Shown: positions 832 to 18,931, counted from the stretch's first letter. The stretch is 64,000 nucleotides of DNA from Candidatus Latescibacterota bacterium (GCA_965198115.1 OZ240241.1:128001-192000), one strand, 5' to 3'. The notes: generated by a model from the sequence alone, not told the origin. Made by a program: numbers and translations.

Positions 832-2448
832 ATGAAGTTCAAGAGCGCCAAAATCAAGAACTTTAGGCGATTCACGGATCTGACGGTTCTGGGTATCCCC
901 CAAAAGGCGCGATTGATCATGCTTGCTGGCCCGAACGGATGCGGCAAGTCTTGTTTTTTCGATGCACTGCATACTTGGTACAACTGGACGACGGCAAAGA
1001 ATCGATTATGGGAAATGGATTACCACGGCAAGGCTGGTTCACCTCACCGCGACAGCTGGGGCAATGATGTCAAGCTGGAATTCCACGAACCTCTTCCTCA
1101 AGAGAAAAAGAAAATCCTTTACGTGAGATCGGCATACAGAAACGATCCAGAGTTTCCAGATTCAACGCCTCAACCGGGCTGGCGATCCACTCAGCGAGCG
1201 TCATGTCTCACGCATGATTGACAACGATGCAGCGGTGGCCCGGAACTTTCGACGACTAGCCTCCCAGGTGTTTGACGACATCTTCGAGCCCGAGGACGGA
1301 TCAGTGACTTTGGACCAATTCACAGAGCAGCTCATTGGAGATATCAGGACAGCTTTCTCCAAGCTGTTTCCAAATGTGGAACTCAACAGTCTGGGGAATC
1401 CCCTAGAGGACGGGACCTTTCGATTCACAAAGGGAACGAGCAGAGGTTTCCAGTTCAAAAATCTCTCGGGAGGAGAAAAGGCTGCGTTCGATCTGATTCT
1501 CGATCTTGTCGTCTCCAAGCGCGCTTACGACAACACCATCTTTTGCATCGACGAGCCCGAGTCGCACATGCACGCACGCCTTCAGGCCGATCTCCTGTCC
1601 GTGCTCTACGACCTAATCCCAGCGAACTGCCAGTTACTGCTGGCGACGCACTCCATAGGAATGATGCGACGGGCGCGGGACATCGAAGCGAAGAACCTGG
1701 AAGCGTTGTGTTCCTAGATTTCGGGAACTACGATTTCGACCAGCCCCAAACCATCGAGCCAGTGAAAAACCCGAACCGGGCCTTCTGGGAAAGGGCCTAC
1801 AAGGTCGCGCTCGGCGATCTAGCCGCATTGGTTGCACCGAGTCAGGTCGTCATATGCGAAGGTGAGCCGCTGGCGAGTCGGCCCGTTGGGAACCACTCCC
1901 ATGACGCTAAATGCTACGAGCGCATATTCGAGGATGAGTTCCCGCAGACTAAGTTTGTGTCAATGGGAAGCGATCGACAAATCATTGGCGACAAACGGGG
2001 ATTGGCGGAGGCGCTTCGCGTGTTGATCGGCGGTCTGAAGGTCGTGCGGCTCATCGACCGCGACAACCGAACCGATGGAAAAATCTCAGAATTGAGAAAA
2101 GAAGGAGTCCGAGTTCTGTCGCGGCGCAACCTGGAATCTTATTTGTTCGACGGTGAGGTTATCCAAGCGCTCGCCACGTCGGTCGGGAAGGCAGACAAGA
2201 CCGAAGAACTCCTCGCGGAAAAGAATCGTATCCACGCCGCCAAGAGCAGCATCGGATCTTCCCAAGACAATCTAAAACCTGGAAGCCACGATATTTATAT
2301 TGCCTGCAAGAAAATCCTGGGCCTCAACCAATACGGTAACGATGCGAAGGAGTTCGCGCGCGAGACACTGGCCCCACTCATCAAACCCGGAATGGCCGTT
2401 TACGAGGAACTGAAAAGTGACGTCTTCGGCGCGACAACGCCACTCTGA
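832..2448 (+). CDS. ABC-type ATPase fused to a TOPRIM-like nuclease (OLD/PARIS/Gabija-like architecture), two frameshifts
   Basis: Walker A GPNGCGKS, signature LSGGEK, Walker B CIDEPESHMH, H-loop LATHS, then TOPRIM motifs VICEGE and LIDRD. The three ORFs (832-1221, 1214-1717, 1543-2448) join via a +1 C near 1156 and a -1 C near 1697. Confidence 0.8.
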
Positions 2449-2852: not shown

Positions 2853-3483
2853 GGTCAAGTCCCATAGTCAGTTGAAAACTCATCGGGCCCCGTAGTTTGG
2901 TCAGGCTCTCTTTTGAGCATTCTGTTCGTTGTCGAGATTCAGATCTTTGTTCAGTGCTTGCCTGAGTAGGGGAAGATGTTTGTATCCGCTCACGCGTCGC
3001 AGGCGAGGTTCGATGTCGAGGAGTGCGGCAGCCACCCATCTGTGTCTCTGGGGAGAGTTGTTCCAGCGTCTGACCTTCCGAGTGAGCTCGCCGGTCCTGC
3101 TGTTGAGGGCTTCGATGCAGTTGGTGGTTCGGAAGCTTCGTTTCAGGAATGGGAGCATACCCAGCCGGTGGAGGGTCAGGGTTTCCTCCAGGCCTTCCTC
3201 GAGGCTCGTTGCGGCAGACTGATTCATCAGCTTCAGTTCGGGTTTAAGTGATTCGAGTGCGGCCTTTGCCTCCTCGTAGGTGTCGCAGTCATAGGCTTTC
3301 TGAAGCTTCCGTCGAACTCTTGGACGTTCCCTCTCCGGGAGATAGCTGACGACATTCTCGCGCTTGTGCCACTGACAGCGATGAACGCGCACATACCCTT
3401 TGAGGGCTTTGGTGACAGCACTGCGGAGTCCCTTTGAGCCGTCAAGCACAACGAGAAGGCCCTGGTCGTAGCACAGGCCTCTC
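2853..3483 (-). mobile_element. IS256-family element, transposase C-terminal part plus IRR
   Basis: VVLDGSKGL, HRCQWHK (CxxH) and RTTNCIE motifs. The IRR starts at 2853 and the element is interrupted at 3484 by an IS3 end. Confidence 0.88.
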
Positions 3484-3987
3484 TGACCTGCCCCCATCTA
3501 TGTATCCACATCCAGAGTTAGGATGCGGCCGCGATGGGCGGATTGATGACCACCGGTGCGGGAGGTCGATAGCCTAATGCGCTGTGGGGTCGGACGTGAT
3601 TGTAGTGCCGTCTCCACCAGGTGGTCAACACTCTCGCTTCGTGCACGGTCGTGAAGATCTCGCCATTGAGCAGTTCGTCCCTTAGCTTTCCGTTGAAGCT
3701 TTCGATGTATCCGTTCTCCCAGGGGCTGCCCCGCTCGATGAAGAGTGTCTGGACGCCCAACCTGGAGAGCCAGGATCGGACAGCCTTGGCCACGAACTCC
3801 GGGCCGTTGTCCGACCGGATATGTTTGGGGACGCCATGCTTTAGCATCAGCTGCGCCAGTGTCCGCAGTACATCCCGTGATGTTTGCTTACGAGCGACCT
3901 CGATCGCCAGACACTCGCGGCTGTATTCATCCACAACCGTCAGGCACTTCAATGGTCTGCCTTCACGCGTCCTGTCGAACACGAAGT
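3484..3987 (-). mobile_element. IS3-family (IS407-like) element remnant, integrase core C-terminus
   Basis: VVDEYSRECL, RSDNGPEF, PWENGYIESFNGKLRDE and YNHVRPHSALGY motifs. Right end ...GGGGGCAGGTCA at 3484. Confidence 0.9.
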
Positions 3988-4054
3988 TGTCAATGATCGC
4001 CCTAATGGAGCCACTTAGAAGTGGCGATTTCAGGGTCTCGGACGGGGTGTGTAT

Positions 4055-4834
4055 TTAGGGTTTTTGGTCTTCCTTTCCAAGCGTCTTTTTGGGTGTTTTG
4101 GGTAGCGGTTTTGGCGTGCGGTAGCTTTCTCCGTCGAGTATGACGCGGTAGGCGGCGTGCCGGAGTCGATCGAGGGTAGCCGCGCCGAGCAGCCGATTTG
4201 GAAAAGCGTCTCCCCATTCGGTGAAGTCGAGGTTGCTGGTCACGATGGTTGCTGTCCGCTCGTAGCGTTCTGAGACGAGGTCGTGGAAGTCCTCGTCGTG
4301 CGGAGGCGCCATCGGTTTGAGTCCGAAATCATCGATGATGAGCAAGGGTGCTTTGGCGAAGGTTTGGAAGCGGCGCTCGAAGGTGGCCGTTGCTCTTGAA
4401 GCGTGGAGCTGTCCCAGGAGTTTGGTTTGGGTGGTGAAGAGGACGTCGTAGCCGTTTCGGACGGCGATGTGTCCGAGTGCCTGTGCGATATGGCTCTTTC
4501 CGGTGCCACAGGGCCCGGCGATGAGGATGGCGACCTTCTCCTCGATGTAGCGGCAGGTGGCCAGGTCCTGGATCTGGTCTTGGTTGATGCCGAGGTTGAA
4601 GTCGAAGTCGAAGCCCTCGATCGTCTTTTCACCGCGGAAGCCGGCACGCCGCAGCCGCATCGCGAACTTCTTGTTCTCGCGTCGTGCGACCTCATCCTAG
4701 ATGAGGAGCGCCAGGAACTCTGAGTAGGCGAGTTTTTTCTTGATGGCCTCCTGGTTTCTGTTGGGGAGGCTTTCGAGGATGCCGGAGAGGCGGAGGCGCT
4801 TGAGCATGGGTGCAAGTTCGGGCATGGGGTTCAT
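4055..4834 (-). pseudogene. istB: IstB helper ATPase with in-frame TAG at 4697-4699
   Basis: LKRLRLSGI...LLI*DEVARRE, GPCGTGKSH, LLIIDDFG, TSNLDFTEW, LDRLRH. Confidence 0.88.
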
Positions 4835-4854
4835 TTTGTGTCTCCTGGTTGTGT

Positions 4855-5683
4855 TCAGTTGCAGAGGCTGGGAACATCCCGACAGTAGCGGCCCTTGCCG
4901 GTATATGCGTCAGTGAGCGGTGTGGTGGTCACCTCATCGTCCTTTTTCTGGTCCAACCCGTTGTCGAGGATGGTCTTGATGGTTCGGTAGCGTGGGTTGT
5001 CGTAGGCCAGGGCACGTTCGCAGGCGGCTTCGAGGCGGTTTGCCCCGAAGGTCTTCTTCAGGCCGACCACGCCCTGTGCTGCACGCAGGTTGTCCAGGAC
5101 CTTGTCTGAGAAGAGTCGTTCGATGAGGGTGCGGCAGGCCGGGCCGATGATACGGGATTGTTTGAGGCACCATTGGGGGTCGCGCATCAGGTAGGCCCTG
5201 GCCTCCGGTGGCAGATGGTCCGTTACGGTGGAGCGGGCGCCGGGTCGAATGCCGCGAGAGTGAACGGCCACGACCTGCTGCTCCCGGAACACACGGACGG
5301 TGGTCTCCGTGACGCGCAGCCATAGAGATTTACCCACCAGCGTGTAGGGCACGGAGTAGCGGCATTTTTTCGAACTGCACGTGGCAGTCGCCGTGGACTT
5401 TGGCTTGCGCCCACGTCGCGAGCTCAGGTGGGATGTCCGGCAAAGTCCTGAGGAGGTGACGTTCGGTCTCCACAAAACGTGTGAGCGGCTTTTCTCGAGT
5501 TGTGCCGTGGAGACGATTGCCTGCCGGGCCGAGGACCCATTCCTTGAGCTGCCGGTTCGCGTCGGAGAGGCAGCGGAAGTCCCGCAATGGGAGAAAGTTG
5601 CGTCTCACATACTTCACGCCGGCTTCCACGCGTCCTTTCTTCTTCGGGTCGCGGACCGGACAGGGGGCGATCACGAAGCCATA
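4855..5683 (-). pseudogene. istA: IstA transposase, C-terminal half, frameshifted in a T run near 5365-5370
   Basis: PCPVRDPKKKGRVEAGVKYV, RLHGTTREKP, YSVPYTLVG. Confidence 0.85.
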
Positions 5684-8566: not shown

Positions 8567-8897
8567 CGTGCCCCCTTGATTTTGGGATCGGAGGGTACCT
8601 GTGTGGTCGGGTGGACGCAACCGGAAGTTGTCAGTTGCCACTCCTCGGGCGTCGAAAAGAACCGGGGATCGCTTCACAAGTAACTGGGACGTAATACGTT
8701 ACGAAAAAGTGGACGACGCGTTGTGGGCCCTCGTCCGCCTGCGCGAGGTGTCTCCGCAGTCCACTGGTCGGTTCTTCCTATTTGTTCGTTAGAAGCTGTC
8801 GTCAGTGCATTGAGTTGCGGAAATGCCTTGCTGGGGGATGAGCGATTCCTTATCAAACGGCCGGATTGTCCACACGAGAGAGAAGGAGATTTCCAGG

Positions 8898-9920
8898 ATG
8901 GCTTTGACGCGTGACGCGCTTCGGAAACGGATCGATGCAGTGCCTCGTGTCCGATTGGGTCACTTTCCGACACCGCTGGAGTATCTACCAAGGCTGACGG
9001 AAGCGATCGGCGGGCCCAGGATCTTGATCAAACGCGACGATTGTACCGGTCTGGCGTTCGGCGGAAACAAGACGCGACAGATCGAGTTCACGATCGCTCA
9101 AGGCACGAGTCGAGGCGCGGATGTTGTCATCGGGGGAGCTGGCTCGCAGTCCAACCACTGCCGGCAACTGTCTGCAGCGGCAGCCAAACTGGGTCTCAAG
9201 GCGGCGATCGCCGTGGTGAAGGACCACAAGAGCGGGGGTGGTGGAAACCTGCTGCTCGACGATCTTCTAGGTGCCGAGGTAGAGGTGGTGGAGGTCGAAA
9301 CCCAGGAGTATCTGGACGAAGCGAAGCAGAAGCTCCGCGAACGTTTCGAAGCGGAGGGACGCAAGCCCTTCATCGTGATGCAGGCCGTCAATCGACCATT
9401 CGGTGCGATGGGCTACGCACTGGCTGTTGCGGAGATGGCCGATCAGGCCGATGCGATGGGGGAGCGCATCGACGCGATCGTGACGTGTTCTGGCAGCTGC
9501 ACACAGCCGGGAATCATCTTTGGAAATGCCGCCATCGGATTAGGCTCGCGTATCTATGGCATCGCGCCGATCGAGTGGACGTATGACGTGAAGGAAGCTT
9601 TCCACGGCGTCCTGTCGCGAATGACCGAGATCCTGGATGTCGATTTCTCGTTCGAGGATGGTGACATCTGGAACAGTGCGGATTACATAGGACCCAAGGG
9701 CTACGCCTTCTGCTCCGAGGAGGGCAACGCAGCGCTTCGGCTGATGGCAGAGACGGAAGGGATCATTCTCGATCCGATTTACACCGGGAAGGCGCTGGCG
9801 GGGCTGATCGACCTGGCCAGCAAAGGCGAGCTGGCCGAGGACGAAACGGTCGTGCTGGTTCACACGGGTGGCACACCCGCGCTGTTCGCGTATGGCGATG
9901 AGTTGATGCGCAAGGGGTGA
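8898..9920 (+). CDS. D-cysteine desulfhydrase / ACC deaminase family PLP enzyme
   Basis: FPTPLE, KRDDCTGLAFGGNKTR (PLP lysine), QSNHCR, LDPIYTGKA, HTGG. AAGGAG RBS. Confidence 0.9.
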   Translation: MALTRDALRKRIDAVPRVRLGHFPTPLEYLPRLTEAIGGPRILIKRDDCTGLAFGGNKTRQIEFTIAQGTSRGADVVIGGAGSQSNHCRQLSAAAAKLGLKAAIAVVKDHKSGGGGNLLLDDLLGAEVEVVEVETQEYLDEAKQKLRERFEAEGRKPFIVMQAVNRPFGAMGYALAVAEMADQADAMGERIDAIVTCSGSCTQPGIIFGNAAIGLGSRIYGIAPIEWTYDVKEAFHGVLSRMTEILDVDFSFEDGDIWNSADYIGPKGYAFCSEEGNAALRLMAETEGIILDPIYTGKALAGLIDLASKGELAEDETVVLVHTGGTPALFAYGDELMRKG

Positions 9921-10021
9921 GCGCAGTTGATGCTGCGCGATGCCTTCGAGAATTACGAGACACGCGTGTTGCCCGTCTGAAGGGACGCGTCCCATCTGTT
10001 CAGAGAGGTGGAGCACTTTCG

Positions 10022-11371
10022 ATGATTTCGCAACTGCTGGCTGAGAGAGAACGGAACGGCCACCCGATTCGCGTCGGCATCGTCGGGGCGGGAAAATTCG
10101 GGACGGGGGTCGTCGCACAGGTTTCGCGAATGAAGGGGATGACTGTCGCCGCGATCGCGGACATCAAGCTGAACGGCGCCAAACAGGCTTTCGAGGCAGG
10201 TGGGATCTCGGCCGACGCCACCTACGTGGTGGAGAAGGAAAACGGGCTGGAAGATGCGATACAGTCGGGCAAATACGCGATTATGGAGGATGCCGGGTTG
10301 CTCGCGCGGTCCGATTCGATTGACGTGATCGTCGAGTCCACGGGACTTCCCGAGGTCGGCGCTCGAACGGCCCACACGGCCATTCTGCACAACAAGCACG
10401 TCGTGATGGTGAACGTCGAAGCGGATGTGACTGTCGGTCCTTATCTGAAGAAAATGGCGGACGCTGCGGGCGTCGTTTACTCGCTCGTGGATGGTGATCA
10501 ACCGGGATGCACGATGAATTTGGTCGAGTGGGCGGAATCGCTGGGCTTCGAAATCGTCGCTGCCGGACGGGGAACGATTATGCTCGATGACGACCGTGAA
10601 GGCGTTCCTGACACGGTGCCGCAACGTTACAACTTCTCCGACGAGGTGATCGCCCGCCGACGAATCAACTTCAAGATGTATAACTCCTTCCGCGACGGGA
10701 CAAAGGCGCAGACGGAGATGACGGCGCTCTCGAATATGACGGGGTTGCCGCCCGACGTGCGTGGGATGCACGAGCCCGCCGTGGCAATCGCCGACATTGC
10801 TCGGGTGATGAGTCACGAGGGCGAAGGGGGAATCCTGTCACGTAGTGGGGTCGTCGAACTGGCGAACAGCGTGACCGTCGAAGGCCAACGCATCCCTCAA
10901 TCACTGGGGATGGGCGTGTTCGTCGTGATTCGGACAGACCATCCGTTCATTCAGGAAGACCTTTCGGGGTACATCGGCATCACGGGAGGCGACGGGAAGA
11001 ATTTCCTGTTGCACCGACCGTATCACCTCGTGGCCATCGAAGCGCCGATCACGATCGCCAACGCCGCGCTCTACGGAATGCCGACGGGCGCGCCGATCGG
11101 TCACATCTCGGACCTGATCACGGTGGCCAAGCGGAATCTGCAGTCGGGAGAGGTGCTCGACGGCGGTGGGGGCTACACGGTCAACGGGTTGATCGAGCGT
11201 GCGGATGTCGCCCGTGAGGAAGGTCTGCTTCCGTTGGGGCTGTCTCCTGGCGCAAAGCTGAACCGCGCGATCGAGACGGGTGAAGCGATCGGCTACGCGG
11301 ATGTCGACGTCCCGGCGGATTCGTTCGTCTACAAGATTCGCCAAATCCAGGATGAATCCGTAGAGGGGTGA
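10022..11371 (+). CDS. NAD(P)-dependent oxidoreductase, homoserine-dehydrogenase-like, with C-terminal SAF domain
   Basis: VGIVGAGKFG, VNVEADVTVG, DGDQPG, DGTK, AKRNLQSGEVLDGGGGYTV...LPLGL. Confidence 0.85.
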   Translation: MISQLLAERERNGHPIRVGIVGAGKFGTGVVAQVSRMKGMTVAAIADIKLNGAKQAFEAGGISADATYVVEKENGLEDAIQSGKYAIMEDAGLLARSDSIDVIVESTGLPEVGARTAHTAILHNKHVVMVNVEADVTVGPYLKKMADAAGVVYSLVDGDQPGCTMNLVEWAESLGFEIVAAGRGTIMLDDDREGVPDTVPQRYNFSDEVIARRRINFKMYNSFRDGTKAQTEMTALSNMTGLPPDVRGMHEPAVAIADIARVMSHEGEGGILSRSGVVELANSVTVEGQRIPQSLGMGVFVVIRTDHPFIQEDLSGYIGITGGDGKNFLLHRPYHLVAIEAPITIANAALYGMPTGAPIGHISDLITVAKRNLQSGEVLDGGGGYTVNGLIERADVAREEGLLPLGLSPGAKLNRAIETGEAIGYADVDVPADSFVYKIRQIQDESVEG

Positions 11372-11375
11372 TTTT

Positions 11376-12050
11376 TTGAGAATCGTGGTCACATCAGCGG
11401 CCTCCGAGGCCGGTCGTCTGTTGGTGGAGGGTCTTCGTGGCGATCACGATGTGGTGGCCACCGACCTGCCCGAAGTTGCGGAGACGACTGACGGAGTGTC
11501 TTGTGCACTCGAAGCGGACGATGCGACTGCGGAGCTGGTCGCCGGTGTGGACGCGATCGTTCACGTTGCCCGGTTGTCACGGGCGTCGGCCGATGCGTTC
11601 GGCCGCGCCGACAATGCGGCTGTCGACTTTCACTCGCGGTGCACCTACAACCTGTTGACGGCGGCCGCGGAGGCGGGTGTGGCGCACGTCGTCTATTTGA
11701 GTTCGCTATCGCTCTTTGCTTCGTGCGATGCGTCGTGGGATGTGACGGAACGCTGGCAGCCGCGTCCGACGACCGACTACGAAACCTTGCGTCACGCGAT
11801 CGGCGAGTTCACCTGCCGCGAATTCGCGCGCGAGCACCGTATCAAGGTGACGTGTCTGCGAACGGGAACGCTCGGGGGCAGTGGCGTGGATCGTCTTGAC
11901 GTCGACGATCTCGTGATCGCTGTCGGGCGGGCGCTGGATCATCCCCCCTCCGAATGGGAGGTTTACCACGTCCAGTCCAACGTCGAGGGACGCCGGTTCG
12001 ACACGACGAAGGCGACGGGAGTCGGATTCGTGAAGGGTGGGTCGTCGTGA
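11376..12050 (+). CDS. NAD-dependent epimerase/dehydratase family protein (degenerate motifs)
   Basis: IVVTSAASEAG Rossmann-like start, GVDAIVHVA, TYNLLTAAAEAGV, YLSS. Confidence 0.75.
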   Translation: MRIVVTSAASEAGRLLVEGLRGDHDVVATDLPEVAETTDGVSCALEADDATAELVAGVDAIVHVARLSRASADAFGRADNAAVDFHSRCTYNLLTAAAEAGVAHVVYLSSLSLFASCDASWDVTERWQPRPTTDYETLRHAIGEFTCREFAREHRIKVTCLRTGTLGGSGVDRLDVDDLVIAVGRALDHPPSEWEVYHVQSNVEGRRFDTTKATGVGFVKGGSS

Positions 12051-12763
12051 AGATTCTGATTCTGGGTGCCAATTCCCGTTTGGGACCCCACGTCGTCCGT
12101 TCCACCGAAGACGGACACACACTACGTCTGGCGGATGTAACCGATGTTGCCAGCGACCGGCACGAGACCTGCAGGGTCGATGTAGGCTCGCTCGACGACG
12201 TGGTGACGACCGCAGAGGGAATGGACGCCATTATGAACTGTACCGTCGAGCGTCGGGATCCCCGTCAGGCTTTCGACGTGAACACGCGTGGCTGCTACAA
12301 TATGATGCGGGCGGCGGTCGACTGCGGCATCCGGAGGGTGATCAACACGGGCCCGCACTTCGCCATCGCCGGCCCAACCTACGAGACGTTCGACTACGGA
12401 ATGGCTCCCGATATGCCACCCCATCCGGGAGTCGGTCTGTATGCCCATTCCAAAGGAGCCGGACAGGAGATCTGTCGCATTTTCTCGACGCAGCACGACA
12501 TCCACGTCCTGATGCTGCTGTTCTACAACTTCCGTGACCACGATGACACCGAACGCGGAAACAACCACCCCTTCGCCGTTTCGTGGAGAGACGCGGGAGA
12601 TGCCGTCCGGCTGGCGCTCGAGGTGGACGAGAGCCGTCTGGACTCACGTTGTGAGATTTTCAACATTCACGCCGTCCCTCACGGTGCGTTTTCGAACGAC
12701 AAGACGCTTCGGGTGTTGGGATTCAGTCCGGAGGACGATCTGCGGCGAGCGTGGGGCAGGTGA
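12047..12763 (+). CDS. NAD-dependent epimerase/dehydratase (uronate-dehydrogenase-like)
   Basis: ILILGANSRLG, VNTRGCYN, YAHSK. GTG start overlaps the upstream stop. Confidence 0.82.
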   Translation: MKILILGANSRLGPHVVRSTEDGHTLRLADVTDVASDRHETCRVDVGSLDDVVTTAEGMDAIMNCTVERRDPRQAFDVNTRGCYNMMRAAVDCGIRRVINTGPHFAIAGPTYETFDYGMAPDMPPHPGVGLYAHSKGAGQEICRIFSTQHDIHVLMLLFYNFRDHDDTERGNNHPFAVSWRDAGDAVRLALEVDESRLDSRCEIFNIHAVPHGAFSNDKTLRVLGFSPEDDLRRAWGR

Positions 12764-12938
12764 TCCATCGCAAACGCAGTTGCGCGCAGGATCGCGCAAA
12801 GAGAGGTAGATTGTCCGGCTTGGCGCTTCAATTGTGACCGCGGTCCCTTTTCGTACGTAGCCGTGATAGCACAAGTGTGAAACCCCACGTCACTCATCAG
12901 AATCCTGAGACGCGTCGGGGTTTGCCTAACGGGCTTTT

Positions 12939-12995
12939 AATCAATATATTAGCGCCTTGTGCGTTGACCAGTCCGGGCGTGGCACGGAATTTGGA
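12939..12995 (+). promoter_or_regulatory. IHF site plus sigma54-like -24/-12 element upstream of the tes-like gene
   Basis: AATCAATATATTA (12939-12951) matches WATCAANNNNTTR exactly. TGGCACGGAATTTGGA (12980-12995) matches TGGCACGN4TTGC except for G at the -12 C. Confidence 0.55.
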
Positions 12996-13130
12996 TCAGG
13001 TTGATGGCGGGGAGTCGGAAGCGGTTGTGCGTGAACCGAATTTCACTATGTTTATTGCAATTGTCACCGAAGGATTCGTAACTCGTTTTCGTAGTTACCT
13101 TCGGAGTTCCCGTACGGTGGGAGGAGAAGT

Positions 13131-15101
13131 ATGAGCGTCAAAGATCAGCTTGTGACTCGAGCTGCGGATGTCGCCTGGAGCGTGTTCCAGGCCGTCAACA
13201 CCCGTATTCCCGAAGGGGTGCCGTTCCAGCCAGTCTGGGCGCCCGCGCCGTTGCTTAAGAGCTACGAGCGCAGCAAGCCGACCTTGGGGTATCCACGAGA
13301 GACTGACAGTCTGTGTCCGGAATGTGTGAAGGAAGTGCGGACAGCCATCATCGAAGGCCGTCGTGATCTTTCGGAGCTCGTGGATGGGGGGCCGGGTGAG
13401 ATCCGAGCGACTCTGTTCGAAGAAGACGGAATGGTCAAGATCAGGAAGACGTGCGATATCCACGGCGACTTCGAAGATACCTTGTCGATCGACACGGAGT
13501 GGTCGAGGATCATCGAAAGTCGCTTTCCGGGTCGTGATTTCCAGACCTTCGGGGATGAGCACGTCCACCGACACGGAACATCGACGATCAAGTACGGTCG
13601 GGGTGCCGTGTTGACGATCGATCTGACGAATCGTTGCAATATGATGTGCAACCCGTGCTTTATGGACGCGAATCAGGTCGGCTACGTCCACGAACTGACG
13701 ATGGACGACGTGCGGCGCATTCTGGACGCGTCGATTTCCTTCAAGCCGCGCCGACAGATGTCAGTCCAGTTTTCGGGAGGTGAGCCAACGGTTTCGCCGC
13801 ACTTCCTGGAGTCGGTCCGCTACGCGAAGGAGGTCGGTTACTGGTGCGTCCAGGCGGCCACGAACGGGCTGCGCTTCGCCGAGGATCTCGACTTTGCGTA
13901 CGAGGCGAAAGAAGCGGGCCTTACGATGGCCTACCTGCAGTTCGACGGGGTGACGAACGAAGCCAATTCTCATCGTCACATTTCCAACCTGTTCGACGCC
14001 AAGTTGCTCGCGATCGAGAACCTGTCGAAGGCAGGGATCGACATCACGCCGGTCGTAACGGTCCTAAACGGTATCAACAACAAGCAGGTCGGGCCGATCC
14101 TCCAGTTCTGTATCGACAATTCCGACAAGATCGGATCGATCTCTTACCAGCCCGTGTCGTTCACGGGTCGCGACGAAGACATTTCGGACGAGTTGCGTCA
14201 CGCCCAGCGCTACACGATCTCGCACCTCGCCCACGACCTGACCAACTGGTCGGGCGGAAAGCTCGACGTTCATCGGGACTGGTTCCCATTGGGTGCCGGC
14301 ACGATTTTCACGAACCTTGCCGACCATCTCCGGGGCCCCGATCAGGAATTCGGCGGACAGACCTGCTCCTGTCATCCCAATTGCGGGTCGGCGGTGCACA
14401 TCGTGGTGAACGAAGAGACGAAGGAGTGGGCGTCGATTACCGAGTTCTTCGATCTGGACCAGTTTATGAGGGACGTCGAAGTGATGACGGATACGGCGCG
14501 CGACACGAAGTGGATACGAGCACAGGCGGGAATGTCGCTGCTCAGGAACTTCAAGCCGGAAAAGGCGCCCACAGGCTTCGAGCTCGAGGATCTGTTGAGG
14601 ATCGTGGATCGCCGCGTCGGTGGATCGCTGTCCGGTGGAAATCGTCCGAAGGATCGGTCGTGGCGCATTATGTGGGTCGGCGGAATGTGGTTTCAGGATC
14701 TGTGGACCTACGATTTCCGCCGCACGGAAATGTGCGTGATCCCCTACGCCACTCAGGAAGGGGAGATCTCTTTCTGCGCCTACAACACGGGTCTCGGGTG
14801 GCGTCAGATCATCGAGAATATGCATATGACGGCAACGACATCTGACTGGTTCAAGACGGAAGGTCGCCACGAAATCTACGCTGGCGATCGCGCGATGCCG
14901 CTCCCGGAGGACGCGGAACATCACGTGCTGACGCGCAACTACGAAAAAGTGGACGGCGATCTCGTGGAGTTGCCCGTGCTCGACGACGGGTGCGATGACG
15001 GTTCGTGCGGATGCAGCACTGACCCGAAGGAAGAGATCAAAGACATTCTCCGGGCGCCCGACGAGGCACGTGTCGAGGAGGACGTCCCGGCCGACGACTG
15101 A
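13131..15101 (+). CDS. tes: Radical SAM protein, tetraether lipid synthase (Tes/GDGT-MAS) family
   Basis: N-terminal SLCPEC...KTCDIHG, rSAM IDLTNRCNMMCNPCF, QFSGGEPT, YLQFDG, QPVSFTGR, CHPNCG, MWFQD.WTYD..R, IPYAT, SFCAYN. The motif order follows archaeal Tes as recalled. GGAGGAG RBS. Confidence 0.82.
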   Translation: MSVKDQLVTRAADVAWSVFQAVNTRIPEGVPFQPVWAPAPLLKSYERSKPTLGYPRETDSLCPECVKEVRTAIIEGRRDLSELVDGGPGEIRATLFEEDGMVKIRKTCDIHGDFEDTLSIDTEWSRIIESRFPGRDFQTFGDEHVHRHGTSTIKYGRGAVLTIDLTNRCNMMCNPCFMDANQVGYVHELTMDDVRRILDASISFKPRRQMSVQFSGGEPTVSPHFLESVRYAKEVGYWCVQAATNGLRFAEDLDFAYEAKEAGLTMAYLQFDGVTNEANSHRHISNLFDAKLLAIENLSKAGIDITPVVTVLNGINNKQVGPILQFCIDNSDKIGSISYQPVSFTGRDEDISDELRHAQRYTISHLAHDLTNWSGGKLDVHRDWFPLGAGTIFTNLADHLRGPDQEFGGQTCSCHPNCGSAVHIVVNEETKEWASITEFFDLDQFMRDVEVMTDTARDTKWIRAQAGMSLLRNFKPEKAPTGFELEDLLRIVDRRVGGSLSGGNRPKDRSWRIMWVGGMWFQDLWTYDFRRTEMCVIPYATQEGEISFCAYNTGLGWRQIIENMHMTATTSDWFKTEGRHEIYAGDRAMPLPEDAEHHVLTRNYEKVDGDLVELPVLDDGCDDGSCGCSTDPKEEIKDILRAPDEARVEEDVPADD

Positions 15102-15222
15102 GTCGAGACCGGGGAACCGTCGGTCATTCCGGGTTCCCGATCCATTTGCGGATCGGGAACCTGACTGTTTCTACGCGGTTCGGTTCGAACCGAGGACGTC
15201 TTTTGACGAAAGCACGATTCCT

Positions 15223-16704
15223 ATGAAAATCCTGCTGATCAGTCCGCCGCTCAACAGTCTCTACCACGCTGCCAGCATCATCATCCCACCACTCGGGCTG
15301 CTGTATGTCGCCGGTAAGCTCGAATCCGACGGCCACGACGTCGAAGTCCGGGATATGACTTACTACGACGGGCCGGAGACCTACGATGGCTACGATTTAG
15401 TCGGGGTGACGTGTACGACGCCGCAGTATCCGGAGGCACTTCAGTACGTCAAAGATGCGCACGCCTCCGGATGTAAAACGTTGATCGGCGGGACCCACGT
15501 GACGTTCACGACGGAGACGACACTCCGACTTTCCTATGTCGACTTCGTCATCCGAGGCGAAGGCGAGCAGGCCACGAGCGTTTTATGCAAAGCACTGGAC
15601 GAAGAGGGCTCGCGCTTCGATCCCCGCAAGATTCCGAGTCTGTCGTGGTATGACGCCGATGCTGGTATTGTCGTCGACAATCCTCAGCTTCCGGACATCG
15701 CGACTGTGGACGATCTACCCAGACCAGCACGCCATCTCGTGGATATGGAGGCTTACAAGGTCACTAAACTCGGGCCTCGGGCGGTCACGACGATGATCAC
15801 GAGCCGGGGCTGCCCCTACAACTGCACATTCTGTTCGGTACCCACCCTCTATCAGAAACGCAAGTGGCGCTCGCGCGAAGCGGTTGCCGCCGTGGATGAG
15901 ATGGAGTATCTCGAGCAGACCTACGGCTACGGCGGTGTGCTGCTCGTCGACGACCTGTTGACAACAGATCATGAGCGCGTTCATGAGCTGTGCGCGGAGA
16001 TCATCGAGCGCCGGCTAGACATCAGCTGGTGGTGCCAGTCCAGGGCCGACATCCTGGTGAGGCATCCGGCCCTCGTTGAGCATATGGCCGAGGCTGGATG
16101 TTACCTGACATTCCTGGGCCTGGAGTCGGGGAACGAGCACGTGTTGGCCCATTGGAACAAGAAGATGAAGCTCGACACGGGTGGTCAGGCCGTCGAACTG
16201 CTTCGTCAAAACGGCATCAAAGCGTTGACGGCGTTTATCATCGGGATGGAAGAGGAAACTGAAGAGGATATCGACAACACGATCGAGTACGCCAAGACGC
16301 TGGACGCCCATCAGGCGCAGTTCTCGATCCTGACGCCGTATCCGGGGACAGAGGACTGGGGACGAAACATTCCCAGGATTTTCGACAACAACTGGGCGAA
16401 CTACACGGGGAGCAAGGTCGTGTTCCACCGCGATCACCTGCCGGGCAACGTGATCGAGCAGAAGATCAAGAAAGCCTACTGGAATTTCTACAACCCGATG
16501 CGCCGTTGGGATCTGATTCTGAAGAACGTAGCGGGCGTGAATCCACGAAAACTGTGGCGTATTCTGAACACGCTGAAGAAACAGCGGGATATCGTCATTC
16601 CCGAGATGGATCCGGTGGACAATTACATTTCGCTGACGACGTCGGACTGGGGGACGTGGAAGACGAGCGGCGAACCTGTGGCGGAGGTGGCGGAGGCAGT
16701 GTAG
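15223..16704 (+). CDS. Cobalamin-binding (class B) radical SAM protein
   Basis: KILLISPP...PPLGLLYVA, GGTHVTF, IRGEGE, SRGCPYNCTFC, LGLESG, LTPYPGT. Start moved to ATG 15223. Confidence 0.9.
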   Translation: MKILLISPPLNSLYHAASIIIPPLGLLYVAGKLESDGHDVEVRDMTYYDGPETYDGYDLVGVTCTTPQYPEALQYVKDAHASGCKTLIGGTHVTFTTETTLRLSYVDFVIRGEGEQATSVLCKALDEEGSRFDPRKIPSLSWYDADAGIVVDNPQLPDIATVDDLPRPARHLVDMEAYKVTKLGPRAVTTMITSRGCPYNCTFCSVPTLYQKRKWRSREAVAAVDEMEYLEQTYGYGGVLLVDDLLTTDHERVHELCAEIIERRLDISWWCQSRADILVRHPALVEHMAEAGCYLTFLGLESGNEHVLAHWNKKMKLDTGGQAVELLRQNGIKALTAFIIGMEEETEEDIDNTIEYAKTLDAHQAQFSILTPYPGTEDWGRNIPRIFDNNWANYTGSKVVFHRDHLPGNVIEQKIKKAYWNFYNPMRRWDLILKNVAGVNPRKLWRILNTLKKQRDIVIPEMDPVDNYISLTTSDWGTWKTSGEPVAEVAEAV

Positions 16705-16738
16705 AAGAGAGTGTTGGGTGTTCTGCGTAAGTCTGATC

Positions 16739-16783
16739 CAAAGACCCCTGCTGCGAGGCACTGCAGCGGGGGCTTTCTTGTTT
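16739..16783. terminator. Intrinsic terminator between convergent genes
   Basis: CCCCTGCTGC-GAGGCACT-GCAGCGGGG stem followed by CTTTCTTGTTT. Confidence 0.7.
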
Positions 16784-16792
16784 GCGGATTTC

Positions 16793-17674
16793 TCAAAGGG
16801 AGACAGCGTCCAGGATTTCGCCCATATGACGGGATCGGTTGAGGACGTAGAAGTGGATGCCCGGCACGCTAGCGGCGATGAGCTCCGCGGTCTGGGCGAT
16901 GCACTTTTCAATGCCGATCTCTTCGGCCCTTGCGTCGTCGTCGCCGGCTCGATCGAGCTGGATCTGGAGGTCACTCGGAATGCTGGCGCCACACATTGTC
17001 GTGATGCGCTGAATCTGACCGGCCGACTGAATCGGCATCAGCCCGGGGATGATCGGGATGGTGATTCCAGCCGTGTATGCCGCGTCTCTGAACCTGAAAT
17101 AGCTGGCGTTGTCGTAAAAAAGTTGCGTGATGACGATGTCGGCGCCCGCATCGACCTTGCGCTTGAGATTGACGAGGTCGGACGTCAGGTTCTCCGCTTC
17201 CAGGTGCTTTTCGGGATAGCCACCGACGGCGATCCCGAAGGGCGCATCGGATGCCTCGATCGTCCGGATGTGGGAAACGAGCTGATTGGCGTGTTCGAAT
17301 CCGCCGGGTGGCGGTTCAAAGCGGTCGTTGCCGCCGGGAGGGTCACCACGCAAAGCGACGATGTTCGTGATACCCGCCTCTCGGATGCGGGCGACGATCT
17401 GTTCGATTTCGCCGCGTGAGGCGCCGACGCAAGTCAGGTGATGAGCCGAGTCTACGCCGAATCTCTCCCGGATCATCGCAGCGATGTCGAGCGTTTTATC
17501 CTGCGTCGTACCCATCGCGCCGTAAGTGACCGTGATGCACCGTGGGTTGTGTTCGACGAGTTCGGGCAAGATGCGTCGTTCGAGGGATCTCATCCCACGC
17601 GGTGTTTTGGGTGGAAAGACCTCGAACGTGACAACGGGCCCGTTGCCTTCTTTGAAGTAGTCTGGAAATCGCAT
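16793..17674 (-). CDS. metF: 5,10-methylenetetrahydrofolate reductase
   Basis: FEVFPPKT, VTYGAMG, HLTCVG, ALRGDPP, GYPEKH, ITQLFYD, HFYVLN. Confidence 0.95.
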   Translation of the reverse strand: MRFPDYFKEGNGPVVTFEVFPPKTPRGMRSLERRILPELVEHNPRCITVTYGAMGTTQDKTLDIAAMIRERFGVDSAHHLTCVGASRGEIEQIVARIREAGITNIVALRGDPPGGNDRFEPPPGGFEHANQLVSHIRTIEASDAPFGIAVGGYPEKHLEAENLTSDLVNLKRKVDAGADIVITQLFYDNASYFRFRDAAYTAGITIPIIPGLMPIQSAGQIQRITTMCGASIPSDLQIQLDRAGDDDARAEEIGIEKCIAQTAELIAASVPGIHFYVLNRSRHMGEILDAVSL

Positions 17675-17845: not shown

Positions 17846-18931
17846 CTACTCTTTGTGTCCGTATTGCTTGATAAAGTCCTCGACCATTTCGTTCGCCTGA
17901 TCGTCGCTGAACTGGTGCGGGGGCGACTTCATAAAATAAGCGGATGGTCCCGGTAGAGGGCCTTTGATTCCGTGATCAAGGGCGATCTTGCAGCACCGAA
18001 GGGCGTCGATGACGACGCCGGCAGAGTTCGGGCTGTCCCAAACTTCGAGTTTGAGTTCGGCCTTGAGCGGAACACCGCCGAAGGTCTCACCCTCCATATG
18101 GATGTAACACCACTTCTGGTCCTCGAGGAAGGGAACGTGGTCGCTCGGACCGACGTGGACGTTGCCCTCGCCCAAATCGTAGTCGAGCTGTGAGGTGACC
18201 GATTGTGTCTTGCTGATCTTCTTGGATTCGAGTCGGCTGCGCTCGAGCATATTGTAAAAATCGGTGTTGCCCCCGAAGTTCAACTGATAGGTCTTTTTGA
18301 GTTTTACACCGCGATCTCGGAAGAGACGAGTCAGAACTCGGTGGCTGATGGTGGCTCCGACTTGCGACTTGATGTCGTCGCCGACGATTGGTAGACCTCG
18401 TTTCTCGAAGCGATCGGGCCAGTGCCCGGTGCTGGCGATGAAGACAGGCACACAGTTCACGAATCCACAGCCGGCCTGGAGCACTTGTTCGACATACCAC
18501 TTGGTGGCTTCCTCGCTCCCGACGGGGAGGTAGTTGACGACGACGTCTGTTCGCGTGGTTTTGAGTACCTCTGCGATGTCGACGGTGTCGCCATCGGCCT
18601 TGGTAATGACCTCTGTGAGGTACTTGCCGAGACCATCGTGCGTCATACCGCGCTGGACCGGAACGTCGAGGAAGGGGACGTCGGCGAACTTGAACGTGTT
18701 GTTCGGGCCCGAGAAAATCGCTTCGCTCAGGTCTTTTCCGACTTTTTCCGCGTCGATGTCGAACGCGGCGCTGAATTCGATGTCGCTGATGTGATAGCCG
18801 CCGAGCGTGGAGTGCATCAGGCCAGGGACGAATTCGTCGTTCGAGGCGTGCCGATAATACTGAACACCTTGAACGAGAGAGGACGCGCAGTTGCCGACCC
18901 CGACGATGGCGACACGTACTTTACGTGACAA
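17846..18931 (-). CDS. ino1: myo-inositol-1-phosphate synthase
   Basis: [60 protein letters not shown]. Confidence 0.95.

Follow-up and report, generated by a model that had tools for sequence, protein, structure and literature searches.

The closest described system to the locus analyzed here is the archaeal tetraether synthase (Tes/GDGT-MAS; M. jannaschii MJ0619, PDB 7TOL/7TOM), whose domain order of a rubredoxin-like ribbon, a radical SAM core and a C-terminal cluster domain matches that of the first gene of the locus (gene 1). Binding by archaeal Tes extends to ester-linked phosphatidic acid (PMC13274423), which argues that the family is not strict on chain linkage. According to the accounts of Zeng 2022 (PMC8941075) and Halamka 2022 (PMC10087280), a Tes-type role for bacterial homologues has already been proposed; these homologues entered the literature as candidates in 2022 and as of 2026 still awaited validation (PMC11868695; preprint 10.64898/2026.06.23.733905), and the idea that such genes join or modify lipids is not new. 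As described by Zeng et al. 2022, the bacterial homologues resemble gene 1 in their level of similarity to archaeal Tes, the phyla of their relatives and the role proposed, while gene 1 differs in coming from Latescibacterota and in having a class B radical SAM partner (gene 2). A lower-identity homologue from Edaphobacter aggregans is given there with 32% identity and an E-value of 4e-61 to MA_1486, and gene 1 would be of this kind, judging from similarity level and taxonomy rather than direct alignment. Sahonero-Canavesi et al., with the thresholds they set, are reported to have detected Tes homologues in just 3 of 14 acidobacteria that make iso-diabolic acid, and to have argued that a different pathway operates. 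The one bacterial enzyme described in PMC13159169 as shown to couple fatty-acid tails is the radical SAM enzyme Mss of Thermotoga and Thermoanaerobacter, which is found in anaerobes and is called there only remotely related to Tes; Mss would be a functional analogue of gene 1, likened to it by description and not by sequence. The GDGT ring synthases GrsA/GrsB, the GMGT methylase Gmm and the hopanoid C-3 methylase HpnR have the class B two-domain architecture in common with gene 2, Grs and Gmm being likened by description only, and the position of gene 2 beside a Tes-family gene recalls the clustering of archaeal gmm with gms (PMC11214058).

The locus lies in a 64,000-nucleotide stretch of DNA from a Candidatus Latescibacterota bacterium (the window). 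Gene 1 (13131..15101; 656 amino acids), whose product is a Tes-like radical SAM enzyme of 'type B' (defined below), begins at an ATG preceded by GGAGGAG, and gene 2 (15223..16704; 493 amino acids) encodes a class B (cobalamin-binding) radical SAM enzyme; both genes are real and, like all features given here with one exception, lie on the plus strand. The long open reading frame at 14995-16704 (569 amino acids) is over-extended, as homologues align from a Met at 15223, and with this likely, homologue-supported start the genes do not overlap and are separated by 121 nt. A sigma-70-like promoter match (12922..12950; 9/12, a consensus match only) lies in the 367-nt gap 5' of gene 1, the region 12700-17000 contains five sigma-70-like sites versus 1.6 ± 1.3 in shuffles, and a weak promoter-like match (15203-15230) is found near the start of gene 2. 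Between the genes stands a terminator- or attenuator-like hairpin with a U-rich tail (15130..15163), whose 14-bp stem has a free energy of -29.5 kcal/mol (z -5.77; 0 of 200 shuffles as stable) and is preserved in the same-genus relative L017 via two G-U wobble changes; an Rfam search of this hairpin matched no family. A weaker terminator-like hairpin (16745..16772; -24.5 kcal/mol, z -2.71) follows gene 2, and just past it ends a convergent MTHFR gene (16793-17674, minus strand). The first-pass annotation described a two-gene unit with a shared terminator; the genes are linked, as set out below, but the strongest hairpin lies between them, so they do not have a terminator in common. Judging from this intergenic hairpin, expression of gene 2 would depend on read-through or on a weak promoter of its own.

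In Pfam, gene 1 matches Radical_SAM (61.8 bits) and Zn_ribbon_HMPTM (PF23545, the Tes-type N-terminal zinc ribbon; 44.6 bits versus a cut-off of 27). Its best NCBIfam model is Tes (NF045702) at 310.7 bits, which does not pass the cut-off of 450 and is followed by TrsS at 202; in that search, the genomes used as controls (M. jannaschii, S. acidocaldarius and M. acetivorans) do reach the cut-off. Comparison with PDB 7tol_A gave E-values of 3.4e-61 for the sequence alone (residues 91-563) and 1.1e-75 for a type B profile. By alignment over residues 91-563, gene 1 is a homologue of archaeal Tes/GDGT-MAS, as the first-pass annotation had recognized. It differs from the archaeal enzyme in a 22-residue ribbon insert (after the first CxxC, and absent from type A copies), in about 90 additional C-terminal residues with a CGC motif, in the extra cysteines C412 and C414 that are kept across type B, and in its bacterial host. 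An AF2 model of gene 1 has a pLDDT of 81.6 and a pTM of 0.84, with pLDDT below 50 at residues 140-145 and 150-155. Gene 1 shares 92% identity with the copy in the same genus and 77-79% with those of the sister family, the corresponding values for alanyl-tRNA synthetase being 85% and 61-64%; measured against this synthetase, gene 1 is strongly conserved, a pattern of constraint.

To describe the putative metal sites, residue conservation was counted over 56 aligned rows (48 type B and 8 type A), and positions of the M. jannaschii enzyme (Mj) were transferred through the 7tol alignment with a chain-to-native offset of 20, set from C33/H36. The rubredoxin-like zinc-ribbon domain (residues 55-118; 13293..13484) carries the predicted ligands C62, C65, C108 and H111, conserved in 48/48 type B and 8/8 type A rows; the Mj motif is given as C9X2C12X20C33X2H36 in PMC9433317. 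The N-terminal auxiliary [4Fe-4S] cluster of the archaeal enzyme has Mj C73, C77 and C80 as ligands, according to the same paper, along with a His. Gene 1 lacks these cysteines, C73 aligning with a gap, C77 with H148 and C80 with S151, and a His-rich segment (residues 142-151; 13554..13583) replaces the cluster motif in this alignment, such that one of the four metal centres of archaeal Tes is missing. H148 and S151 occur in 48/48 type B rows, and cysteine at both positions in 8/8 type A rows. The radical SAM CX3CX2C motif of C169, C173 and C176, followed by F177 (13635..13658), is invariant in all 56 rows. The contacts to SAM/5'-dA are kept as F177, Q340, S343 and R347 (Mj Phe106, Gln268, Ser271 and Arg275), with F177, Q340 and R347 identical in 48/48 type B and 8/8 type A rows; Mj Arg210 aligns to H283, adjoining the invariant R282, and the correspondence at that position is uncertain. 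Within the region of the C-terminal auxiliary cluster (14364..14777), C418, M519 (Mj Met439), C535, Y539 (Mj Tyr459) and C549 are likewise invariant in 56/56 rows. Some of these cysteines probably ligate the C-terminal cluster, Met439 alone being named as a ligand in the available account of PMC9433317. C412, in the same region, is Cys in 46/48 type B and 0/8 type A rows, and C414 in 48/48 and 2/8; conservation within type B also extends to H146 and H148 (48/48), C626 (44/48) and C628 (38/48). The Tes motif series attributed to gene 1 by the first-pass annotation is thus incomplete: C..C..C..H of the ribbon, CX3CX2C and the Cys/Met/Tyr positions at the C terminus are present, and the N-terminal [4Fe-4S] cysteines are absent.

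Type A bacterial Tes proteins, which pass NF045702, share family and overall architecture with gene 1 at 34-37% identity. They keep the CPxxCGLC...H cluster motif, are about 550 amino acids long and score 550-594 bits, versus the 656 amino acids and 310.7 bits of gene 1. A tree of 31 rows, all non-archaeal (7 type A and 24 type B, including gene 1), separates the two with 100/100 support on each side and branches of 1.79 and 1.88, together about 3.7 changes per site. On this tree, gene 1 belongs to a bacterial clade of its own, type B, which is very conserved and sister to type A. Gene 1 thereby lies outside the clade that passes NF045702, an outcome that by the first-pass annotation's own criterion counts against its reading. 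Relatives come from Acidobacteriota, Myxococcota and other phyla. In a class-level sample of 101 genomes around an acidobacterial locus (Terriglobia class), 94 carry a Tes-family gene (92 of 99 with G110 and G132, both unpublished, left out); type A occurs in 11 of the 101, and also in one Latescibacterota genome (G145). Several type A genomes of this sample (e.g. G036, G045, G054 and G063) show, in addition, matches under the cut-off whose scores are in the type B range, and in G121 cut-off-passing and type B-range copies lie about 6 kb apart. Within the acidobacteria, going by record titles, type B occurs in Terriglobia, Pyrinomonadaceae and Vicinamibacteria, which we take to be subdivisions 1, 3, 4 and 6. 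As stated in PMC13159169, nearly all members of acidobacterial subdivisions 1, 3, 4 and 6 make iso-diabolic acid.

The divergence of type B raises the question of whether it performs a radical reaction other than tail-to-tail coupling, on a lipid or another hydrophobic substrate, with the class B partner acting in that pathway. The loss of one cluster, the gain of conserved C412 and C414, the C-terminal CGC and the His-rich loop, the long branch between the types and the NF045702 score under the cut-off are all consistent with this, as is the naming of some members as pterin-methyltransferase by JGI, a sign of how uncertain the annotation is. The retention of type A and type B-range copies together in several Terriglobia-class genomes argues for distinct roles. 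However, type B retains all of the substrate-side positions (Met439, Tyr459 and the C-terminal Cys) and of the SAM contacts, the class B partner seen in Gemmatimonadota and Acidobacteriota looks like a lipid methylase, and the type B taxa, under the correspondence with subdivisions that we assume, match known producers of iso-diabolic acid. We therefore consider a different reaction to be somewhat unlikely.

Gene 2 passes the Pfam cut-offs for B12-binding (PF02310; 60.7 bits versus 32.1) and Radical_SAM (PF04055; 67.7 bits versus 29.5). Its B12-binding domain spans residues 21-118 of 493 (15283..15576; residues 97-194 of the 569-residue reading frame minus 76), and its CX3CX2C motif (C197, C201 and C204; 15811..15834) is invariant in 10/10 aligned orthologues and partners. 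This domain content, an N-terminal B12-binding Rossmann domain ahead of a radical SAM core, places gene 2 in class B of the radical SAM enzymes, in agreement with the first-pass annotation. Its best relatives of solved structure are AprD4, OxsB, TokK and TsrM. Among NCBIfam models, gene 2 matches best to BchE (198 bits versus 481.35), HpnJ (168.7 versus 577.6) and HpnR (140 versus 650), in each case far below the cut-off, and an assignment as the ladderane-lipid B12 radical SAM enzyme (TIGR04072) was likewise rejected (88 bits versus 360). GrsA/GrsB and Gmm are not among the 25 NCBIfam models listed for gene 2.

The whole 8.43-Mb genome contains five matches to gene 2 at E<=1e-5, giving an estimated chance of about 0.06% that such a gene lies within 500 bp of a given gene. 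Among 80 related loci, 26, from several phyla, have a class B radical SAM homologue in the flanks of the Tes-like gene; 24 of these homologues align over at least 350 amino acids and 14 lie within 400 bp, 13 of the 14 on the same strand. The adjacency recurs across phyla in differing gene orders, and it extends to type A in G145, where a Tes gene scoring 577.9 bits is followed by a gene-2 homologue after 117 nt. The class B neighbour in Gemmatimonadota and Acidobacteriota resembles HpnR, and so a lipid C-methylase (325-339 bits). Of the 151 genomes of the phylum, 9 have a close gene-2 orthologue (at least 66% identity), and the type B gene is present in 8 of the 9, versus 24 of 151 overall. 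Other genomes separate the two genes: G143 has a gene-2 homologue at 66% identity and no Tes-family match at E<=1e-25, and all 15 genomes of the sister genus g7 carry the Tes-like gene and none a gene-2 orthologue. In a tree of Tes-adjacent class B enzymes, the three groups were not shown to form one orthologous group.

These data also bear on whether the two genes are independent neighbours, with gene 1 ending at its own terminator and gene 2 encoding an unrelated cobalamin enzyme. Such independence would fit the strong U-tailed hairpin between the genes and the weak promoter-like match at 15203-15230, the distance of more than 1 Mb between the orthologues of gene 1 and gene 2 in G020 and G030, and the 54 of 80 related loci in which no class B homologue was found in the flanks. 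The small chance of finding a gene-2-type gene so close, the adjacency in varied gene orders and phyla, also beside type A Tes, and the co-occurrence in 8 of 9 genomes speak against it, and we regard independence as very unlikely. Given how few matches to gene 2 the genome contains and the recurrence of the adjacency in several phyla, the pairing of gene 1 and gene 2 is not a matter of chance.

The first-pass annotation had proposed a brGDGT-type, tetraether pathway. As proposed in the literature, such a pathway combines a coupling enzyme with an enzyme that turns ester into ether. A search for one kind of ether-lipid gene, that with the PlsA/Ger domain (PF09989), gave 0 matches in this genome, rated 100% complete; on this search, the term 'tetraether' is unsupported. 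Matches to elbD and agps, other ether-lipid genes, have been reported in Latescibacterota MAGs (2026 preprint 10.64898/2026.06.23.733905). The genome does encode a GGGP synthase (G000:C1:2131467-2132216) that passes NF003198 (285.5 versus 247) and TIGR01769 (199.7 versus 161.55), and a UbiA-family gene (1635231-1636058) whose best models are DGGGP synthases, at 176.7 bits versus a cut-off of 296. Searches of the genome did not find CarS (PF01864) or a convincing G1P dehydrogenase (best 46.5 bits versus 413), and Coleman et al. 2019 describe the same for most FCB phyla (PMC6431249).

The presence of these prenyl genes in an FCB-group host makes it conceivable that the pair acts on isoprenoid, archaeal-type ether lipids, with gene 1 coupling phytanyl-type tails to yield either a macrocyclic diether or a lipid resembling GDGT, and gene 2 methylating or cyclising the isoprenoid tails, as Gmm and Grs do in archaea. 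The type A Tes of G145, which passes an archaeal-trained cut-off and adjoins a gene-2 homologue, and the latitude of the Tes family as to chain linkage (PMC13274423) are compatible with such a role. Yet of the 31 genomes of the order, 30 have GGGP synthase and 14 a Tes-like gene, such that the synthase is present with or without the Tes-like gene and does not co-vary with it. The DGGGP-synthase-like gene is under its cut-off, CarS and a convincing G1P dehydrogenase were not found in the genome, and both prenyl genes are surrounded by housekeeping genes. Type B, moreover, thrives where GGGP synthase was not found, namely in 0 of the 101 genomes of the Terriglobia-class sample. An isoprenoid substrate is thus very unlikely in our estimation. 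At the level of the family, the occurrence of Tes-family genes in 94 of 101 genomes that yielded no GGGP synthase, together with the overlap, under the assumed subdivisions, between type B taxa and producers of iso-diabolic acid, argues for a fatty-acid substrate.

The explanation that we favour, with confidence about evenly balanced, is that gene 1 forms a C-C bond between the ends of two membrane-lipid alkyl chains, which gene 2 in turn methylates or cyclises. By analogy with the archaeal enzyme, two successive 5'-dA radicals would take hydrogen from the terminal carbons, and the first substrate radical would be held on the C-terminal cluster. As substrate, chains derived from fatty acids (iso-diabolic-acid type) are more probable than isoprenoids, and gene 2 would act as a tailoring enzyme. 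The product may be ester-bound or mixed, rather than a proven tetraether, because no PlsA/Ger gene was found.

Several observations count against the favoured explanation. For gene 1 itself, these are the NF045702 score under the cut-off, the position outside the type A clade and the lack of [4Fe-4S]N ligands; further points are the unvalidated status of bacterial Tes homologues, the 3/14 result as given by Sahonero-Canavesi et al., the lack of PlsA/Ger, the intergenic hairpin, the cases of g7 and G143, and the tree that does not show the three groups of Tes-adjacent class B enzymes to be one orthologous group.

Taken together, our comparisons suggest that the likely role of the pair is to couple lipid tails and modify them afterwards. 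This Latescibacterota genome adds a divergent bacterial relative of Tes with an adjoining class B radical SAM partner.

The window (128001-192000) lies within an 8.43-Mb single-contig genome, and the first-pass annotation had placed a two-gene unit at 13131-16704, where two co-oriented ORFs were indeed found. Gene 1 (13131-15101) encodes a Tes-like radical SAM protein of 656 aa and has the Shine-Dalgarno-like run GGAGGAG upstream. The ORF call for gene 2, its class B radical SAM partner, begins at 14995; as every homologue aligns from the Met at 15223, we assign gene 2 to 15223-16704 (493 aa), with a spacer of 121 nt between the two genes. The strongest hairpin of the region lies in this spacer at 15130-15163 (14-bp stem, -29.5 kcal/mol, z -5.8, U-rich tail), and its fold was matched by 0/200 shuffles and is kept in a same-genus relative through two G-U wobble changes. 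A weaker hairpin (16745-16772; z -2.7) is located 3' of gene 2, and an MTHFR gene converges on it. The two genes had been said to share a terminator; as the strongest hairpin is internal and the weaker one follows gene 2, such a terminator is not evident from the sequence. An Rfam search over 12500-17000 returned no riboswitch or known RNA, giving two chance-level matches only (E 0.08 and 0.9). Of the sequencing runs listed for 12800-16900, two, both from one study, are of DNA type and none is of RNA.

Pfam assigns gene 1 a Radical_SAM domain and the Tes/'HMPTM'-family zinc ribbon; in NCBIfam, it scores highest on the tetraether synthase equivalog, with 310.7 bits where the curated cut-off is 450, followed by TrsS at 202 bits. 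Its sole close solved relative is the archaeal tetraether synthase of M. jannaschii, GDGT-MAS (7TOL), which was matched over residues 91-563 by the single sequence (E 3.4e-61) and by a profile with an E of 1.1e-75. The ligands reported in the accessible text of Lloyd et al. 2022 (PMC9433317) were transferred to gene 1 via the 7TOL alignment, with the chain/native offset of 20 set by C33/H36. This revealed that the rubredoxin-type site (C62, C65, C108, and H111), the SAM-cluster cysteines (C169, C173, and C176), and the 5'-deoxyadenosine contacts (F177, Q340, S343, and R347) are kept, as are the C-terminal cysteines C418, C535, and C549, while M519 and Y539 correspond to the labile Met439 and to Tyr459, respectively. 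The cysteines of the N-terminal [4Fe-4S] cluster, C73, C77, and C80, are replaced by a gap, His148, and Ser151. The Tes motif series attributed to gene 1 thus holds at the rubredoxin-type, SAM, and C-terminal positions and is lost at the N-terminal cluster. An AlphaFold2 model built from a 56-row alignment was confident (pLDDT 81.6, pTM 0.84) except in the C-terminal tail and in the His-rich and SAM-cluster loops.

The loss of the N-terminal cluster cysteines is shared by all aligned members of a clade. We refer to bacterial Tes copies that pass the cut-off of the tetraether synthase model (NF045702) as type A and to the divergent, sub-cut-off clade that includes gene 1 as type B. In the acidobacterial class sample described below, type A copies score 550-594 bits, have ORFs of ~550 aa, and keep the CPxxCGLC...H cluster motif, whereas type B copies score 285-340 bits, have ORFs of ~670-730 aa, and resemble gene 1. 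Across the 56 rows of the clade alignment (48 of type B and 8 of type A), the mapped ligand and contact positions are identical in every row, the N-cluster positions and position 343 excepted. All 48 type B proteins have His and Ser at the N-cluster positions, where all 8 type A proteins have Cys and Cys; at position 343, type B has Ser in 48/48 proteins and type A varies between Thr, Ala, and Ser. Type B further carries a 22-residue insert in its ribbon domain and conserved residues of its own: H146 and C414 (both 48/48), C412 (46/48), and a C-terminal CGC (44/48 and 38/48). A maximum-likelihood tree of 31 bacterial sequences separated 7 type A from 24 type B proteins with support of 100/100 on both sides and branches of 1.79 and 1.88 changes per site; gene 1 falls in type B, grouping with Latescibacterota and next with Calditrichota and Bacteroidota. 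By model score, type A may belong with archaeal Tes, the tree itself comprising bacterial proteins.

The family of gene 1 is large and tightly conserved. In the protein collection, 8000/8000 scored candidates match it, the best 120 being 63-91% identical, and 591/599 pattern-matching stretches in the species collection encode relatives; by record title, these come from Gemmatimonadota, Acidobacteriota, Myxococcota, Calditrichota, KSB1, Planctomycetota, and Ignavibacteria. The Tes model was also run against 101 genomes from the class of an acidobacterial locus labelled Terriglobia, of which 94 gave a match at E<=1e-40 and 11 a copy passing the cut-off; G110 and G132, both unpublished, hold sub-cut-off matches, and leaving them out gives 92/99 and 11/99. 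In one acidobacterial genome (L116, G121:C18, 5991-15481), a type B and a type A gene are co-oriented and separated by ~6 kb, with no recognisable lipid genes in the interval. Bacterial Tes homologues have been described before. Zeng et al. 2022 (PMC8941075), in the accessible part of the paper, reported 456 of them and suggested that they take part in making brGDGTs, with homologues 32% identical in Edaphobacter aggregans and 40-42% identical in Koribacter and Solibacter; for Solibacter, the accessible text of Halamka et al. 2022 (PMC10087280) proposes Tes together with GrsA/B and PlsAR homologues. Sahonero-Canavesi et al. 2022, as far as the accessible text goes, found Tes homologues in only 3/14 iso-diabolic-acid-producing acidobacteria at E<=1e-50 and >=30% identity, thresholds that we infer exclude most type B copies. 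Later sources (PMC11868695, 2025, and preprint 10.64898/2026.06.23.733905) treat bacterial Tes homologues as lacking experimental validation, and the preprint places tes in Acidobacteriota only, among its surveyed MAGs.

Gene 2 was confirmed as a class B radical SAM protein by its B12-binding (60.7 bits) and Radical_SAM (67.7 bits) domains and its invariant C197/C201/C204. Its best named models all score far under their cut-offs (BchE, 198 vs 481; HpnJ, 169 vs 578; HpnR, 140 vs 650), among solved structures its best matches are AprD4, OxsB, TokK, and TsrM, its relatives bear generic names only in public sources, and the ESM Atlas places it with generic B12/radical SAM clusters only. Class B proteins neighbouring Tes-family genes form three groups in a tree that did not resolve them as one orthologous group: a Latescibacterota group that includes gene 2; an FCB group (Calditrichota, KSB1, Bacteroidota, and Ignavibacteria) that is 33-41% identical over the full length; and a Gemmatimonadota/Acidobacteriota group that scores best on the model of the hopanoid C-3 methylase HpnR (325-339 bits). 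Elsewhere in the host genome, a second cluster (L117, G000:C1:3295081-3304241) contains two more class B radical SAM genes alongside genes for a lysyl-PG-synthase-type membrane protein, a carbamoyltransferase, a GT4 glycosyltransferase, and an FkbM methyltransferase; it probably serves to modify a glycan or glycolipid.

With five matches to gene 2 in the host genome, we estimate the chance of its adjacency to gene 1 at ~0.06%. A class B homologue was present in the flanks of 26/80 related loci, aligned over >=350 aa in 24 of these 26, and lay <=400 bp from the Tes-like gene in 14 loci, on the same strand in 13 of the 14; these are not random-sample figures, because the 80 loci are the best-matching of 591 and 16 of them are close Latescibacterota relatives (>=77% identity to gene 1). 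Within the phylum, a type B gene occurs in 24/151 genomes and a close gene-2 orthologue (>=66% identity) in 9/151, eight of which also have a type B gene. Several genomes speak against strict coupling: the ninth, G143 (66% identity), gave no Tes-family match at E<=1e-25, the two orthologues are far apart in G020 and G030, and one sister genus has a Tes-like gene without gene 2 in 15/15 genomes. Gene-2 homologues of ~40% identity occur in six small genomes of the phylum that showed no type B gene, four of which (G145, G155, G147, and G151) were checked for Tes. In G145 (L118, G145:C17, 4153-7245), a type A Tes gene (577.9 bits) is followed after 117 nt by the gene-2 homologue; in G155, a Tes fragment lies at the end of a contig, and no Tes was found in G147 and G151 (89% and 83% complete). 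The L118 pair belongs to another Latescibacterota family and has GH130 and GT4 genes upstream.

Other arrangements were also seen. In G137 (L119, G137:C7, 2873-11582), a Tes-like copy broken by a frameshift, for which the genome search counted 6 in-match stop codons, is close to a gene-2 orthologue (67% identity); between them lie an inserted pair of nearly identical DDE transposase genes and a B12 radical SAM gene with a DUF4070 domain. An intact Tes-like copy is on another contig. G023 has two Tes-like copies with identical scores (C1:2301025-2302950 and C1:3379801-3381726), one of which has a gene-2 orthologue 2.3 kb upstream, while the other precedes tig-clpP-clpX as in its sisters. In 15/80 loci, among them Gemmatimonadota ones such as L066:2382-3506 and L035:6484-7872, the gene immediately 5' of type B encodes a protein of 370-460 aa with a partial AMP-binding domain, and an HpnR-like B12 radical SAM gene lies ~2 kb upstream on the opposite strand.

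The flanking genes were weighed as a lipid head-group cluster: a PLP enzyme, a DRL-type oxidoreductase, and two short SDR genes upstream, and MTHFR and inositol-3-phosphate synthase downstream. This candidate was rejected because the set stays with the pair only in the same-genus relative, that is, in 1/80 loci. In the upstream set (8823-12763, forward strand), which is kept in that relative only, the PLP enzyme has the D-cysteate sulfo-lyase CuyA as its best model (293.5 bits vs 450) and overlaps the oxidoreductase by 4 nt, and the two short SDR/epimerase ORFs after them, which share 97 nt, each align with the N-terminal region of the Epimerase profile. The inositol-3-phosphate synthase (17846-18931, reverse strand; mycothiol INO1 model, 531 bits, cut-off 638) is 96% identical to that of the same-genus relative and is the most conserved gene of the neighbourhood. 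Mobile-element fragments lie ~8 kb upstream of the pair (2901-5475, reverse strand): the C-terminal part of a Mutator-family transposase (198 aa), an rve integrase core, an IstB-like ATPase, and a Mu-transposase C-terminal domain. Among the 18 other genomes of the host's family, the same-genus one alone has the Tes-like gene. A short ORF at 1214-1717 (forward strand) matches only the C-terminal part of an AAA_21/AbiEii-type ATPase profile and so may be a gene fragment.

As to the lipid involved, the first-pass annotation had proposed a brGDGT-type pathway, which is unsupported in the host's own genome, where no PlsA/Ger domain (PF09989) was found. An isoprenoid substrate is the alternative to be weighed: the genome encodes a GGGP synthase scoring above the cut-offs of two NCBIfam models, together with a member of the UbiA family that matches DGGGP synthase models best, at scores below cut-off, and this prenyl gene set agrees with what the accessible text of Coleman et al. 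2019 (PMC6431249) describes for FCB phyla, Latescibacteria included. No CarS was found in the genome, and the neighbourhoods of the GGGP synthase and DGGGPS-like genes hold housekeeping genes and no lipid cluster. In the host's order, GGGP synthase occurs in 30/31 genomes versus 14/31 for the Tes-like gene, and therefore the two do not co-vary; a GGGP synthase was found in none of the 101 genomes of the acidobacterial class, though 94 have Tes-family genes, and the family as a whole is therefore independent of archaeal-type prenyl-glycerol lipids. We consider fatty-acid-derived chains the more likely predicted substrate and an isoprenoid role in the host's lineage improbable. Slightly less probable still is the full scheme in which the Tes-like enzyme would couple isoprenoid ether-lipid tails and the cobalamin enzyme would tailor them in a GGGP-synthase-bearing FCB bacterium; were it true, a host-associated Latescibacterota lineage would be a bacterium that supplies archaeal-style isoprenoid lipids of the macrocyclic or tetraether type.

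Taken together, the pair first annotated here is real, with the start of gene 2, the motif set, and the terminator (the hairpin being internal) corrected, and the first-pass interpretation of it finds support in part. It is of a published kind and its proposed role is still a predicted one: judged from sequence, we give roughly even weight to its comprising a lipid tail-coupling enzyme of a divergent bacterial clade and a cobalamin tailoring enzyme. A literature search that covered main texts found no description of a class B partner of bacterial Tes genes, and the accessible text of a 2026 review names no brGDGT methylase.

Widely used proxies for palaeotemperature and pH rest on branched tetraether and iso-diabolic-acid lipids. 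To our knowledge, the enzymes that make or methylate these lipids in aerobic bacteria are still not proven, a question that this locus sharpens and does not answer. The parts that merit experiment are the recurrent pairing of Tes-family and class B genes and the GGGP synthase background: as the Latescibacterota pair sits in genomes that keep GGGP synthase, a cheap either/or substrate experiment is possible. Bacterial 'Tes homologues' comprise two deep clades with different cofactor sets, and the one that is near-universal in the sampled acidobacterial class is the divergent clade, not the archaeal-like one. As one class B radical SAM family accompanies both clades across phyla, it offers a concrete candidate for the tailoring enzyme.
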